Assembly: GCA_041660565.1 (NCBI GenBank)
Contig: JBAZWC010000001.1
Coordinates: forward strand, 6,155-70,154
Direction: 5' to 3'
Source: Patescibacteria group bacterium
GTDB taxonomy: Bacteria > Patescibacteriota > UBA1384 > CAJBMM01
DNA length: 64,000 nucleotides
Shown here: piece by piece, positions 10,113-21,763 of the stretch
Layout: each line of letters starts with the position of its first letter
How positions within the stretch are numbered: position 1 is the stretch's first letter
The notes under the pieces: model-generated
The model's input: the letters and a program-made list of their open reading frames with translations, nothing else
Databases searched by the model: none
What the model was told of the DNA's origin: nothing
Position numbers and translations under genes: made by a program

Positions 10113-11577
10113 CTATTTGGAGAGTTTGATCCTGGCTCAGAATGAACGCTGGCAGCGTGCCTAACACATGCAAGTCGAACGGTCCGCAAGGACAGTGGCA
10201 GACGGGTGAGTAATGGTTGGGAACATACCCAGAAGTGGGGGATAGCCGCCCGAAAGGGTGGGTAATCCCGCATGTTATCGCAAGATCAAAGCATTTATGC
10301 GCTTCTGGAGTGGCCCAACTCCTATCAGCTAGTTGGTGGGGTAATGGCCTACCAAGGCAACGACGGGTAGCTGGTCTGAGAGGATGACCAGCCACAATGA
10401 GACTGAGACAAGGCTCATACACCTACGGGTGGCAGCAGTTGGGAATATTGCACAATGGACGAAAGTCTGATGCAGCGACGCTGCGTGAAGGATGAAGGCT
10501 CTCGGGTCGTAAACTTCTTTTGGCGGGGAGTAATCTTGAAAGTACCCGCAGAATAAGCACCGGCTAACTACGTGCCAGCAGCCGCGGTAATACGTAGGGT
10601 GCGAGCGTTATTCGGATTTATTGGGCGTAAAGCGTGTGTAGGTTGTAAGTTGCGTCTTTGATTAAAGACCCGGGCTCAACCCGGGGGATGTTGAAGATAC
10701 GGACTTACTAGAGGTTTGCAGGGGCAGATGGAATTCCTGGTGTAGCAGTGACATGCGTAGATATCAGGAAGAACACCGATGGCGAAAGCAGTCTGCTGGG
10801 CTTATCCTGACACTGAGACACGAAAGCGTGGGGAGCGAACGGGATTAGATACCCCGGTAGTCCACGCCCTAAACGATGCTGACTAGGTATATGACGTATC
10901 GACCCGTGGTGTACCGTAGCTAACGCGTTAAGTCAGCCGCCTGGGGAGTACGAGCGCAAGCTTAAAACTCAAAGGAATTGACGGGGACCCGCACAAGCGG
11001 TGGAGCATGTGGTTTAATTCGACGGTAAGCGAAGAACCTTACCGAGGTTTGACATCCCTGGAAAGTCCTGGAAACAGGACCGTGCCGCAAGGAATCAGGT
11101 GACAGATGTTGCACGGCTGTCGTCAGCTCGTGCTGTGAAGTGTACGGTTAAGTCCGTAAACGAGCGCAACCCTTGTCGTATGTTGTATTTTTCATACGAA
11201 ACTGCCGGCGTTAAGTCGGAGGAAGGTGGGGATGACGTCAAGTCAGCGTGGCTCTTACACCTCGGGCGACACACGTGCTACAATGGACAATAACAATGGG
11301 TTGCGAAAGCGTGAGCTGAAGCTAATCCCACCAAACTTGTCCTCAGTTCGGATTGAAGGCTGCAACTCGCCTTCATGAAGTTGGAATCGCTAGTAACGGC
11401 CGGTCAGCCATACGGCCGTGAATACGTTCTCGGGTCTTGTACACACCGCCCGTCACGTCACGAAAGCTGGTAATACCCGAAGTACCTTTTTTAGGTCCCA
11501 CGGTAGGATCAGTAATCTGGACGAAGTCGTAACAAGGTATCCCTATCGGAAGGTGGGGATGGATCACCTCCTTTCTA
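10113..11577 (+). rRNA. rrs: 16S ribosomal RNA (no intron)
   Basis: AGAGTTTGATCCTGGCTCAG at the 5' end, GTGCCAGCAGCCGCGGTAATAC internally, and GGATCACCTCCTTTCT at the 3' end with the anti-SD. Confidence 0.95.
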
Positions 11578-11753
11578 AGGAGTCTAGCCCCTTTTTGTCG
11601 CAAGATAAATTGGTAGGTTAGGTCGATCGCTCCGATGTCCTGCTTGCAGGAACCGGAGTGACACTCTCGGAAACTGGTCACCCTCCTACGCTCCTTGGAG
11701 CTTCGGAAGGGCAAGATTGGCCACAAATAAGATGTAAATAGTTCTATAAAACA

Positions 11754-11791
11754 AAAATCCCCGTTAATTTGGGGATTTTTTGTGTGATGTG
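11754..11791 (+). terminator. hairpin terminator downstream of the 16S
   Basis: aaaaaTCCCCgttaatttGGGGAtttttt. A similar hairpin occurs at 12206-12231. Confidence 0.4.
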
Positions 11792-11816
11792 ATATTCTTG
11801 AAGAAAAGGAGTCGAA

Positions 11817-12197
11817 GTGGTAGAAAATGGTGCACCTAGTCCGGATGGTCAACGTCGGCAGCCAACGAATGAGGAATATGGTCGAATGTACGCGGAGGAT
11901 GATGCTTATGAGAAAAAAATTCGCGAGCTTACCGAAATGTCAGTGAGTTTTCTAAATGAGCTTGATCAAAGGTATGAAGCCGAAGGTAATTTAACTGGAC
12001 TGATAGCAACCAAATATTGTGAAGAAGTGGCAGATTGGCTTGGGCAAAACCCTGAATGCTGTGAGCCGTTTTTAGAGGTGTATTTTGAGCGTAATAGACA
12101 TAAATATGACGAGAGTACCTTGGCATCGCAGTTGGTAAATGAGCACGGTGTGTTGCTAGCGGCGGTGGCTAGAAAAGCAAAACCAGTAACCAACTAG
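11817..12197 (+). CDS. hypothetical protein
   Basis: GTG start 5 nt after SD aaaggag; 126 aa; sits between the 16S and 23S. Confidence 0.45.
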   Translation: MVENGAPSPDGQRRQPTNEEYGRMYAEDDAYEKKIRELTEMSVSFLNELDQRYEAEGNLTGLIATKYCEEVADWLGQNPECCEPFLEVYFERNRHKYDESTLASQLVNEHGVLLAAVARKAKPVTN

Positions 12198-12246
12198 TTA
12201 ATCCAAAAATCCCCAAATCAAGGGGATTTTTGTGTAATTGATAATC

Positions 12247-19207: not shown

Positions 19208-19913
19208 ACCAAATTGTAGTTATAAAATTCGGCCAAATGCTGGAAAATCTGTCCTGAAAAAGGACTAGTATCCCGAACTAAAACCGTATAATATTAAATT
19301 ATGTACGATTTTGAAAATGTTACGGGTGCAGACAATCAGCAGGAAAGACTTGTCGTGAGTATTTCATCCGAAATTGGCTCGTTTCTCTCCGGTTTTGCCA
19401 TGGGAGAAGCCAGTTTCATGATCGTTTGTCGTTCAAGAAATGACTATAAAAGAAAATGGAAAGTGTCTGCAGCGTTTAATGTTTCTCAACACGATCGAGA
19501 GCCTCTCGATTTGTTTCATGAAACATTGGGTTGCGGAACGATTAGAAAAGCAGGAAATGATGGTTGGTATTTCGAAGTGAATAAATTATCAGATATCTGT
19601 AAAATAATTATTCCATTTTTTCTTAGGTTTCCTTTAGTGGGAATTAAGCAGAAAGATTTTGAATTATTCAAAGCTGCTGCTCAAATCCTGTCAAAGAGTG
19701 AAATTGACGATCAAGATTTTTCTAAAGTACTTTCACTGCGTGAGCAGATGAATAACGGAGGAAAAAGAAAATACTCAAAAACAAGAATCCTCAGAGACTA
19801 TACGCCGAACTCCCGCTTAGCGGGATGATGATATAGTCCGATCTTCATGGCGACATGAAGTATCAATCAGAAATGATTGGTCTTTCAAGAAATTGAATGT
19901 AACATAAATGAAC
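19208..19913 (+). mobile_element. group I intron 1 in the 23S (inserted after ...CGTAACTATAA, E. coli position about 1917)
   Basis: The exon sequence is interrupted exactly between ACTATAA and CGGTCC. It contains an ORF. Confidence 0.7.
19301..19828 (+). CDS. LAGLIDADG homing endonuclease (encoded in intron 1)
   Basis: LAGLIDADG-type motif LSGFAMGEASF; about 175 aa, typical for single-motif homing endonucleases. Confidence 0.75.
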   Translation: MYDFENVTGADNQQERLVVSISSEIGSFLSGFAMGEASFMIVCRSRNDYKRKWKVSAAFNVSQHDREPLDLFHETLGCGTIRKAGNDGWYFEVNKLSDICKIIIPFFLRFPLVGIKQKDFELFKAAAQILSKSEIDDQDFSKVLSLREQMNNGGKRKYSKTRILRDYTPNSRLAG

Positions 19914-19944
19914 GGTCCTATGGTAGCGAAATTCCTTGTCGGGT

Positions 19945-20630
19945 GAGAGGAAACAAGCCCGACGCAAAAAAGTTGGCTTATAACGGTGAAGCCCTATTGT
20001 AATTATGGTATATGTTCGGTTAGAATGAATGTATAAATGCAAGGGTAATACCGTGGGAAGTCTTAGTGACCCCGTAACGACTGAGAGCGTAAGCTCGAGA
20101 ATCCACGCAAGTGGGTTAACACGCCAGCCTTTAAAGGATGAAGAAATTAAATTTGCTTCATATCTCTCTGGGTATGTTGATGGAGAAGGATGTTTTTCCG
20201 TATCCCTCAACCCTAGAAAGAAAATGAATAATACTTGGGAAGTCAGACCGAGTTTTTCGGTCAGTCAGAATGCTGAACGTTCAGCCTTTTTATTCAAAAT
20301 GAAAGAATATTTTTCGTGTGGTACTATCCGGCCTGATCGGTCTGATAATACCTTGAAATATGAAATTCGATCATTAGATAAATTAATTGAACGAATAATC
20401 CCGCATTTTGAAAATTTTCCATTACGTTCCGAGAAGCAAAAATCATTTCTAATATTCACGCATATTTGTCAGATGTTGAAATCAAAAAAGCACTTAACTT
20501 CAGACGGAATTTCTGAAATTATTGCTTTAGCCCCGACAATCAACAATGGCAAGCGAAGATATTATCCATTAAAGAAGATATAGTCTGCGCCACTAGTAAT
20601 AGTGGATTGAACAAACGTTCAAAGAACGCG
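19945..20630 (+). mobile_element. group I intron 2 in the 23S (inserted after CCTTGTCGGGT, E. coli position about 1931)
   Basis: The exon resumes with AAGTTCCGACCCGCACGAATGG at 20631. Confidence 0.7.
20029..20583 (+). CDS. LAGLIDADG homing endonuclease (encoded in intron 2); start uncertain
   Basis: Motif YLSGYVDGEGCF. Confidence 0.75.
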   Translation: MYKCKGNTVGSLSDPVTTESVSSRIHASGLTRQPLKDEEIKFASYLSGYVDGEGCFSVSLNPRKKMNNTWEVRPSFSVSQNAERSAFLFKMKEYFSCGTIRPDRSDNTLKYEIRSLDKLIERIIPHFENFPLRSEKQKSFLIFTHICQMLKSKKHLTSDGISEIIALAPTINNGKRRYYPLKKI

Positions 20631-21643
20631 AAGTTCCGACCCGCACGAATGGCATAACGGTCTTGATCACTGTCTCAACGAGGGATCCGGTGAAATTACA
20701 ATCTCGGTAAAGATGCCGAGTACCCGCATCAAGACGGAAAGACCCCGTGGAGCTTTACTACATCCTGGCATTGATATACGGATATCTTCACGTAGCATAA
20801 GTGGGAGCCTTTGATAACATTCTCGCGGGAGTGTTTGAGGCGACAGTGAAATACCACCTCTAGCTATTTGTGTATCTAACCCCTCACCCTGAATCGGGTG
20901 GGAGAGACAGTGTTTGGTGGGTAGTTTAACTGGGGCGGTTTCCTCCCAAATGGTAACGGAGGAGTACAAAGGTCGGCTAGCTCCGGATGGAAATCGGAGT
21001 GATAGCGCAAAAGCATATGCCGGCTTAACTGTGAGACCTACAAGTCGAACAGATGGGAAACCAGGTTTTAGTGAACTGCTGCACTTGAGTGATTTAGGCA
21101 GCAATCAACGGATAAAAGTTACCCCGGGGATAACAGGCTGATCGCATCCAAGAGATCACTTCGACGATGCGGTTTGGCACCTCGATGTCGGCTCGTCGCA
21201 TCCTGGAGGTGAAGTCGCTTCCAAGGGTTTGGCTGTTCGCCAATTAAAGCGGTACGCGAGCTGGGTTCAGAACGTCGTGAGACAGTTCGGTCCTAATCTG
21301 ATGTGGGCGTGGAATTTTGAGTGGGGTTGCGCGTAGTACGAGAGGACCCGCGCGAACGAACCTCTGGTGTGCCAGTTGTTCTACCAAGGGCAGTGCTGGG
21401 TAGCTATGTTCGGTTATGGATAACCGCTGAAAGCATATAAGCGGGAAGCCGGCCACAAGATAAGAATTCATAGATCCCCTGTAGACCACAGGGTTGATAG
21501 ACGCTAGGTCGAAGCTCTGTAAGGAGTTAAGCCAAGGCGCACTAACGGATCATTTCATTTTTTATAACAACCCTCCTTCGCATAAAGCTACGGAGGGCAA
21601 GCGCTTGACACGTTATGACTGGTCTTTTAAAAAAAGTCCATTG

Positions 21644-21763
21644 TTCTGGTGCCTTTTGCCCCTAGGAAACACCCGTTCCCATCCCGAACACGGTCGTTCA
21701 GCTAGGGAGTCGCCAATGATACTTGCCTCGCAAGGGGCCGGGAAAGTAGGTCGGTGCCAGAAC
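21644..21763 (+). rRNA. rrf: 5S ribosomal RNA
   Basis: TTCTGGTGCC...CCCATCCCGAACACGG...GTAGGTCGGTGCCAGAA with complementary ends. Confidence 0.85.

Follow-up and report, generated by a model that had tools for sequence, protein, structure and literature searches.

In a 64,000-nucleotide stretch of contig JBAZWC010000001.1 from a Patescibacteria group bacterium (the window), we describe what is very probably a stretched and transcriptionally split ribosomal RNA (rRNA) locus of the Patescibacteria, or candidate phyla radiation (CPR). The locus spans 11.6 kb. Protein genes would have accumulated between the members of an ancestral operon, and each spacer tRNA would have turned to the opposite strand in place. 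We located rRNA and tRNA genes with Rfam models, and tRNAs also with ARAGORN. The coordinates of all features are collected in Table 1.

The canonical order of bacterial rRNA (rrn) genes (16S, tRNA-Ile, tRNA-Ala, 23S, 5S) is kept, and the 23S and 5S genes are tightly linked, with a spacer of 79 nt. The gap between the 16S and 23S genes is 5,696 nt, which makes them unlinked under the definition of Brewer et al. (more than 1,500 bp apart; bioRxiv 10.1101/705046). In place of the short, same-strand, tRNA-only spacer of a canonical rrn operon, this gap contains nine open reading frames (ORFs) and two spacer tRNAs on the minus strand. Three of the genes in the gap have minus-strand orientation: tRNA-Ile, tRNA-Ala(TGC), and a gene with a PF01035-type domain.

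An earlier reading, made from the sequence without database searches (the sequence-only reading), had placed a plus-strand 16S at 10113-11577 and the start of a plus-strand 23S at 17274, 5.7 kb away, with seven or more protein-coding genes between them. Rfam moves these boundaries by a few nucleotides, to 10114-11574 and to a start at 17271. Rfam and ARAGORN also agree with its assignment of tRNA-Ile(GAT) and tRNA-Ala(TGC) to the minus strand and of tRNA-Ala(CGC) to the plus strand. The same reading proposed that an ancestral operon had been broken and its spacer tRNAs inverted. The architectural part of this proposal holds, as the ancestral order is recognizable, protein genes interrupt it, and both spacer tRNAs are antisense; its account of the cause of the break and the recency that it implies are not supported. 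Because the Ile-then-Ala order and the plus-strand genes between the two tRNAs are both kept, the spacer tRNAs appear to have turned singly, each in place, and not by inversion of a block.

Predicted transcription units and processing helices

We scanned for promoters by counting matches to 12 consensus positions, so the sites are predictions only. Across 13.5 kb, the top plus-strand score (10/12) was shared by three sites: 9868-9896, ahead of the 16S; 16566-16595, ahead of the 23S; and 21805-21833. A weaker match (9/12) at 17028-17057 is nearer to the 23S. The sequence-only reading had described a consensus promoter and a non-coding leader of roughly 700 nt in front of the 23S, and we recovered both: the leader that follows 16566-16595 is about 670 nt long, and we found no ORF with family support and no Rfam match within it. 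The hairpin terminator that had been claimed after the 16S was also found, at 11753-11781. It has T-runs on both sides and is predicted to act in both directions.

We propose that the locus comprises at least four separate transcription units. The 16S would be transcribed alone, from the 9868-9896 site to the 11753-11781 hairpin. Transcription of the minus-strand tRNA-Ile would begin at an extended -10 promoter-like site of its own and run to a second copy of that hairpin (12204-12232), and the minus-strand tRNA-Ala would form a third unit. The 23S and 5S would make up a fourth, which would start at a promoter within 16566-17057 and end at the T-run that follows the 5S.

Separate leader-trailer helices flank the 16S and the 23S. 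Each would be an RNase III-type substrate as in other bacteria, so that the two rRNAs could mature independently. For the 23S, the energy of the duplex (-54.6 kcal/mol) is well beyond that of shuffled controls (-36.3 +/- 4.1). For the 16S, the helix corresponds to a 23-nt match with 91% complementarity (BLAST E = 0.001-0.005), while the duplex energy across the entire flanks (-80.7) is not clearly beyond shuffles (minimum -85.7). No boxA-type motif was common to the 16S and 23S leaders above chance. From the promoter-like sites, the hairpins, the separate helices, and the antisense genes in between, we infer that the 16S and the 23S are separately transcribed and matured.

Related genomes and alternative explanations

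We found relatives of this locus via homologues of ClpP (loci L084 and L086), via homologues of the 153-amino-acid (aa) protein that is encoded in the gap (L180 and L181), and by scanning metagenomes with the first 49 nt of tRNA-Ile. L084, on a 1.04-Mb contig, is 92% identical in 16S and 82% identical in ClpP and has the same uvrC-tpi-pgk-tig-clpP-16S order. Its 16S is followed by tRNA-Ile(+), three protein-coding genes, tRNA-Ala(TGC)(+), and unrelated genes; a homologue of the 153-aa gene follows the tRNA-Ile, and there is no 23S within 5.8 kb past the tRNA-Ala (8.2 kb past the end of the 16S). In the more distant L086 (16S 82% identical), the 16S is followed by tRNA-Ile at a distance of 3.9 kb, and no 23S is alongside. 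L180 and L181 match the interior of the gap: a homologue of the 153-aa gene (+), a 75-aa gene (+), a minus-strand gene, tRNA-Ala(TGC)(-), and, further on, a homologue of the 250-aa gene and tRNA-Ala(CGC)(+). They have no 23S nearby and nothing like cassette C, a GC-rich non-coding segment of the gap. Two other ClpP homologues (P0043 and P0038) were uninformative, as the flanking gene order is not conserved.

The metagenome scan yielded 80 CPR loci with every kind of layout. L102 is stretched and co-oriented, with tRNA-Ile(+), 2.3 kb, tRNA-Ala(+), 1.7 kb, and the 23S(+); we found no likeness between its 23S leader and that of the window. L146 has the 16S(+), tRNA-Ala(-), tRNA-Ile(-), 10.7 kb, and the 23S(+). 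Across these sequences, related lineages share the unlinking, and at least one of them shares the flip of tRNA-Ala. The flip of tRNA-Ile, the insertion of the YbjQ and ASCH genes, the orphan ORF, and cassette C are particular to the window.

The sequence-only reading had suggested a link to cassette C and to local repeats, which would imply a recent rearrangement: these insertions would have broken the operon and flipped the tRNAs in this genome. We consider this improbable. It would fit the private elements (cassette C, an orphan ORF with duplicated hairpins, and the YbjQ and ASCH genes between tRNA-Ile and the 153-aa gene), the small hairpin repeat shared by a 5' fragment of tRNA-Ile, cassette C, and the 23S-5S spacer, and the inversion of the tRNA-Ile unit relative to L084 and L158. 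However, L084, L086, and L180/L181 are unlinked as well, and L180/L181 share the minus-strand tRNA-Ala(TGC) without having cassette C, which argues that the break is neither recent nor tied to cassette C. Furthermore, cassette C adjoins neither tRNA. Nor are the fragments of tRNA-Ile that surround the intact gene the scars of an inversion, because the same nesting is found un-inverted in L084.

Unlinked rRNA genes have been surveyed by Brewer et al., who placed the Patescibacteria among the exclusively unlinked clades (bioRxiv 10.1101/705046). The locus in the window is like the unlinked genes of that survey in its distance of over 1,500 bp, its Patescibacteria host, a small genome, and a likely symbiotic lifestyle. 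In contrast, most of the surveyed pairs lie over 6 kb from each other (mean about 410 kb), while here 5.7 kb separates two genes that share a strand and retain the ancestral order, the spacer tRNAs still lying between them. In the rRNA region of Borrelia burgdorferi, tRNA-Ile alone is on the opposite strand, and reverse transcription PCR identified three separate transcripts (PMC3037291). As in the window, a single 16S lies a few kb from 23S-5S, with spacer tRNAs between them, at least one of which is antisense. The separate transcripts were demonstrated in Borrelia and are only predicted here. Also, Borrelia has a tandem duplicate of 23S-5S, flips tRNA-Ile alone, and co-transcribes tRNA-Ala with the 16S, whereas the window has both tRNAs flipped, nine ORFs in the gap, and introns in the 23S.

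Another explanation is that the locus is still one operon, in which RNA polymerase with an antitermination complex would start at the 16S promoter and continue across the 5.7-kb gap to the 23S, with an internal promoter adding to the transcription of the 23S. The 16S, the 23S-5S, and all of the ORFs in the gap except 14140..14451 (-) do share the plus strand, and Nus-factor antitermination in the rrn operons of E. coli overrides intrinsic terminators. But the path contains two strong hairpin terminators and three convergent minus-strand genes with their own promoter-like sites; the processing helices of the 16S and the 23S are separate; the relatives' 23S is not downstream at all; and the comparable layout in Borrelia yields separate transcripts. 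We regard a single operon as quite improbable.

An assembly artefact that chimerically joined the 16S and the 23S-5S to protein genes in a metagenome bin seems highly improbable. In its favour, mis-joins are common at rRNA genes when metagenomes are assembled, segments rich in GC (8989-9860 with 60% and cassette C with 56%) lie within a window of 45% GC, and the junction with the 23S leader comes from this assembly only. Against it, the upstream order through clpP-16S-tRNAIle-153aa agrees with L084, the order within the gap agrees with L180/L181, an independent Logan unitig is 100% identical to 12479-14049, the 23S leader pairs with the 23S trailer and so belongs to the 23S gene, the cumulative GC skew climbs smoothly across the region, and comparable stretched loci are found on the unrelated contigs L102 and L146. 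On the Logan unitig, the flank of tRNA-Ile and tRNA-Ala also run opposite to the plus-strand protein genes, which supports their minus orientation.

Several points do weigh against a split locus as we describe it. The junction between the gap and the 23S leader comes from this assembly only, and in L180 tRNA-Ala(CGC) is followed by other genes and by no 23S. The promoters, the terminators, and the cleavage by RNase III are predictions based on folding and on scans for consensus sites. About 120 nt beyond the best promoter-like site for the 23S sits a terminator-like hairpin (16717-16733); it may be read through, as rRNA antitermination would allow, it may give rise to a short leader RNA, or the 23S promoter may lie further downstream, such as at 17028-17057. 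Finally, the two insertions in the 23S that we describe below as group I introns match the Rfam model RF00028 with 41 bits (E = 1e-7) and 25 bits (E = 7e-3), which are below the gathering threshold of 50; large ORF insertions interrupt the model.

The stretched, split locus is a further example of an arrangement that is already documented in Patescibacteria and in Borrelia, and because it fits the published surveys, it leaves the current understanding unchanged. It does provide a concrete example of why operon-spanning long-amplicon primers (16S, internal transcribed spacer, and 23S) fail on CPR: the spacer measures 5.7 kb and carries genes in both orientations, and the 23S exceeds its expected length by 1.4 kb. 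The relatives also suggest an ordered picture, in which the operon stretches (L102), the 23S can leave (L084 and L180), and the spacer tRNAs become free-standing and can then turn over one at a time (the window) or together in a single block (L146).

A nested tRNA-Ile unit

The intact tRNA-Ile gene lies between two fragments of a second tRNA-Ile, a nesting that the sequence-only reading had overlooked. Reading along the minus strand, the unit (12244-12562) consists of a promoter-like site, a 5' fragment with a hairpin insert, the leader strand of a helix, the intact tRNA-Ile, the trailer strand, and a 3' fragment. The 3' fragment (12244-12288) is a direct repeat of 12333-12377 of the real gene and is identical at 45 of 45 nt. 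The leader is the reverse complement of the last eight bases of the tRNA and of the trailer, so that the two strands would form a helix of about 30 bp (-55.6 kcal/mol, z = -9.4).

The homologous unit of L084 (12610-13016) has the same nesting in the opposite orientation, and TGnTATGAT also precedes its 5' fragment. The bases of its helix differ from those in the window and the pairing is kept. The nested architecture is seen in the window, L084, L094, L141, L156, and L158, while L140 has the helix only; across these loci, the sequences of the helices are unrelated and are always complementary (z from -3.3 to -9.4). Some stems of the outer tRNA also pair with sequences that are unlike the inner tRNA. 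In L084, the outer anticodon stem is TTACA/TGTAA and the inner one is CGTCA/TGACG (three double changes); in L094, this is seen for the acceptor stem (GGGCGAT/ATCGCCC); and in L158, for the acceptor, anticodon, and T stems (all three that were examined).

Other findings speak against the outer tRNA being functional. Insertions damage the D- or T-loops of the outer copies, and the break point is not constant (after A37 in three loci and near positions 26-31 in two). At each locus, the outer T-arm matches the inner T-arm of its own genome, which suggests gene conversion. Partial self-copies are found at other tRNAs as well. When we searched with ARAGORN for tRNAs with introns, the outer tRNA-Ile was not called, with or without the insert in the D-loop, but overlapping calls are suppressed, so this is uninformative. 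For now, we regard the outer halves as remnants in decay that gene conversion keeps similar. A function in processing the precursor is more probable for the leader-trailer helix.

Among loci L091-L170, self-copies of at least 12 nt within 450 nt of a tRNA gene were found for 16 of 81 tRNA-Ile genes, 5 of 47 tRNA-Ala genes, and 11 of 51 others. Fragments of tRNA genes look like a general feature of these CPR contigs.

It is doubtful that the nested unit is something beyond debris: either a conserved precursor architecture for the maturation of tRNA-Ile, or the footprint of an undescribed element that carries tRNA-Ile. As an architecture, the long helix, and perhaps an outer tRNA-like shell, may direct the maturation of tRNA-Ile after it left the rRNA operon. 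As an element, a small undescribed unit that includes tRNA-Ile may insert into the anticodon region of a resident tRNA-Ile gene. If the helix or the shell were shown to act in tRNA maturation, then the nested unit would be the one element of this locus with potential novelty.

Integrative elements are known to leave fragments of tRNA genes behind (PMC9897764). Such fragments resemble the unit in the window in that the intact gene is followed by a perfect 45-nt direct repeat of its 3' part that begins in the anticodon loop, in the manner of attL and attR. In contrast, just 47 nt separate the copies here, with no ORF or integrase; there is a 5' fragment upstream; a helix of about 30 bp encloses the tRNA; and a relative with 8% divergence in its 16S has conserved the entire arrangement. 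The remnant of an integrative element is the closest known source, and it accounts for the 3' fragment and for neither the 5' fragment nor the helix.

Group I introns and other features of the locus

The 23S gene spans 4,295 nt, as compared to 2,925 positions in the Rfam model, and this excess of 1.4 kb comprises two introns that the sequence-only reading had overlooked. They are inserted after U1917 and U1951 (E. coli numbering) and leave a short exon between them. We identify these insertions as group I introns, and their splicing is predicted, for several reasons. Both 5' exons end in a U, which would form a U.G pair with an internal guide (AACTAU/GUAGUU and GUCGGGU/GCCCGAC), and the last base of both introns is G. 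Excising both insertions restores the conserved region of helices 69-71 (E. coli 1900-1970), with two mismatches. Both contain a LAGLIDADG_1 gene, and both match RF00028 with the sub-threshold scores given above. Removal of both introns by self-splicing would yield a mature 23S of 2,904 nt.

The two intron-encoded proteins (175 and 184 aa) each have a single LAGLIDADG_1 domain (PF00961; 70.1 and 86.8 bits, as compared to a cut-off of 23.1). They match the domains of I-SmaMI, I-PanMI, and I-OnuI in PDB at 1e-30 to 1e-40 and are 35% identical to each other. Coxiella reportedly has two introns around a 34-bp exon; the second intron of Coxiella burnetii, which we take to be at L1917, would make its layout equal to that of the window. 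Single-motif LAGLIDADG introns at L1917 or L1951 of the 23S have been described in Synechococcus C9, Thermotoga subterranea, and Coxiella burnetii (for Coxiella, only L1951 is listed; PMC1995217). The introns in the window are like the known ones in their sites, in their single-motif LAGLIDADG proteins, and in their sizes (705 and 686 nt here and 720-774 nt there); they differ in that the host belongs to the CPR and in that both introns, not one, have a full-length endonuclease ORF. Because LAGLIDADG_1 insertions at positions 1917 and 1952 of the 23S are common across the CPR (PMC11270868), the pair is ordinary for this group, yet it is needed to read the locus correctly. In the Saccharibacteria, the 2024 survey found LAGLIDADG introns to be almost missing.

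Table 1. Features of the rRNA locus, in window coordinates (a dot marks features without a strand).
Feature	Position	Strand	Evidence or remarks
Promoter-like site before 16S, TTGACA-17-TAAATT with TG	9868..9896	+	10/12 consensus; 218 nt ahead of 16S
16S processing helix, 5' strand	9993..10016	+	~24 bp helix with 11714-11738
16S rRNA gene	10114..11574	+	Rfam RF00177, 1478 bits, full model; covers E. coli 16S positions 4-1541
16S processing helix, 3' strand	11714..11738	+	pairs with 9993-10016
Terminator-type hairpin after 16S, AAAAATCCCC-loop-GGGGATTTTT	11753..11781	.	T-runs on both sides, bidirectional (predicted); homologous hairpin after the L084 16S
126-aa orphan ORF between two hairpin copies (inverted repeat I24)	11817..12197	+	without Pfam match
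Second hairpin copy; likely terminator of minus-strand tRNA-Ile unit	12204..12232	.	87% match to 11743-11780, inverted
3' fragment of tRNA-Ile, positions 36-77 plus 3 nt	12244..12288	-	repeat family D12
Leader-trailer helix, 3' strand: tRNA 3' end GCCCACCA plus trailer	12311..12343	-	
tRNA-Ile(GAT), intact	12336..12412	-	Rfam 76.3 bits and ARAGORN
Leader-trailer helix, 5' strand	12418..12449	-	
5' fragment of tRNA-Ile, positions 1 to ~37, with 31-nt D-loop hairpin insert (12476-12506)	12449..12518	-	
Promoter-like site of tRNA-Ile unit, TTGCTG-17-TATGAT after TGn	12534..12562	-	read by eye; below scan threshold
YbjQ-family protein gene	12618..12944	+	PF01906, 6.8e-31
ASCH-domain protein gene	12948..13289	+	PF04266, 1.5e-6
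153-aa membrane protein gene	13291..13752	+	homologues also follow tRNA-Ile in relatives
74-aa membrane protein gene	13772..13996	+	75-aa gene at same position in L180/L181 and P0123 contig
tRNA-Ala(TGC)	13998..14072	-	Rfam and ARAGORN; 95% identical minus-strand copy in L180/L181
6-O-methylguanine-DNA-methyltransferase-type DNA-binding domain protein gene	14140..14451	-	PF01035, 1.2e-22
Cassette C, non-coding	14452..14880	.	56% GC in 45% GC window
250-aa predicted membrane-anchored protein gene	14965..15717	+	weak PsbP_2 match; N-terminal part conserved in L180
tRNA-Ala(CGC)	15804..15879	+	Rfam and ARAGORN; 100% identical in L180/L181
HIT-family protein gene	15903..16232	+	PF01230, 1.7e-13
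83-aa small membrane protein ORF	16303..16554	+	no significant family
Promoter-like site before 23S, TTGACA-18-TAAGAT with TG	16566..16595	+	10/12 consensus; ~675 nt ahead of 23S
Terminator-like hairpin and T-run inside 23S leader	16717..16733	+	~120 nt past 16566-16595 site
23S processing helix, 5' strand	17087..17111	+	pairs with 21603-21627
23S rRNA gene	17271..21565	+	Rfam, 2315 bits; complete
23S exon 1, to E. coli U1917	17271..19205	+	alignment with E. coli rrlH
Group I intron L1917, 705 nt	19206..19910	+	LAGLIDADG gene at 19301-19828; splicing predicted
23S exon 2, 34 nt, E. coli 1918-1951	19911..19944	+	alignment with E. coli rrlH
Group I intron L1951, 686 nt	19945..20630	+	LAGLIDADG gene at 20029-20583; splicing predicted
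23S exon 3	20631..21565	+	alignment with E. coli rrlH
23S processing helix, 3' strand, in 23S-5S spacer	21603..21627	+	pairs with 17087-17111
5S rRNA gene, then T-run	21645..21762	+	Rfam

Four of the nine ORFs in the gap have a Pfam match above the curated cut-off (YbjQ, ASCH, the 6-O-methylguanine-DNA-methyltransferase-type DNA-binding domain, and HIT). The YbjQ gene is widespread across phyla; its best match is from a Saccharimonadales genome, and the two closest relatives that we found (79% identical) are not beside rRNA genes. Despite that best match, we do not assign the organism to the Saccharibacteria, as its 16S is not matched by TM7 probe sequences. According to its gene table, the P0123 contig has a PF01035 gene at the equivalent minus-strand position. 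For the 126-aa orphan, the sole match among 5.8 billion proteins was the copy from its own genome.

Cassette C had no match to any Rfam family, even at E up to 10 with the segment in isolation; its ORFs had no match in Pfam; and no copies were found in any of the relative loci that we compared. Its plus strand folds modestly better than shuffled sequences (z = -3.15). Sequence motifs had raised the possibility of a tmRNA (transfer-messenger RNA) or of RNase P RNA, and we dropped both candidates, as ARAGORN and Rfam found nothing. Cassette C may be a remnant of foreign origin, or it may encode an RNA that is yet to be described.

Five copies of the small hairpin repeat (CCTTCGC, 2-8 nt, and GCTACGG, within a CCC/GGG stem) occur in the window, where none are expected; those in the tRNA fragment and the rRNA spacer are within transcribed RNA contexts. 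The five lie in the 5' fragment of tRNA-Ile (12485-12502, -), in cassette C (14504-14521, +), in the 23S-5S spacer (21575-21593, +), and at two distant sites (41157-41177, -, and 57450-57470, -). This repeat is also found in the CPR loci L106, L141, L143, L151, L152, and L163.

The other GC-rich segment, 8989-9860 (60% GC), lies between clpP and the promoter-like site of the 16S and has two ORFs (135 and 124 aa) with no family match. At its position, the relatives have nothing (L084) or other genes (L083). Similar GC-rich blocks are found near 36000-37000 and 49000-50000. At the edge of a GC-rich stretch, 31574-31647 (+) resembles a tRNA with an abnormal anticodon loop (ARAGORN reports 'tRNA-???' with anticodon 'ag'; Rfam tRNA, 36.5 bits), which may be a pseudogene or the remnant of an attachment site.

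The window also contains a dense family of intergenic hairpin repeats, which open with TGTCATT(C/T)CG, close with its complement (C/T)GAAATGACA, and often lie next to AT-rich AAATTT(C/T)AAA tracts. Examples are at 3316-3556, 8159-8333, 29276-29367, 43037-43212, 51084-51343, 55146-55361, and 62850-62974.

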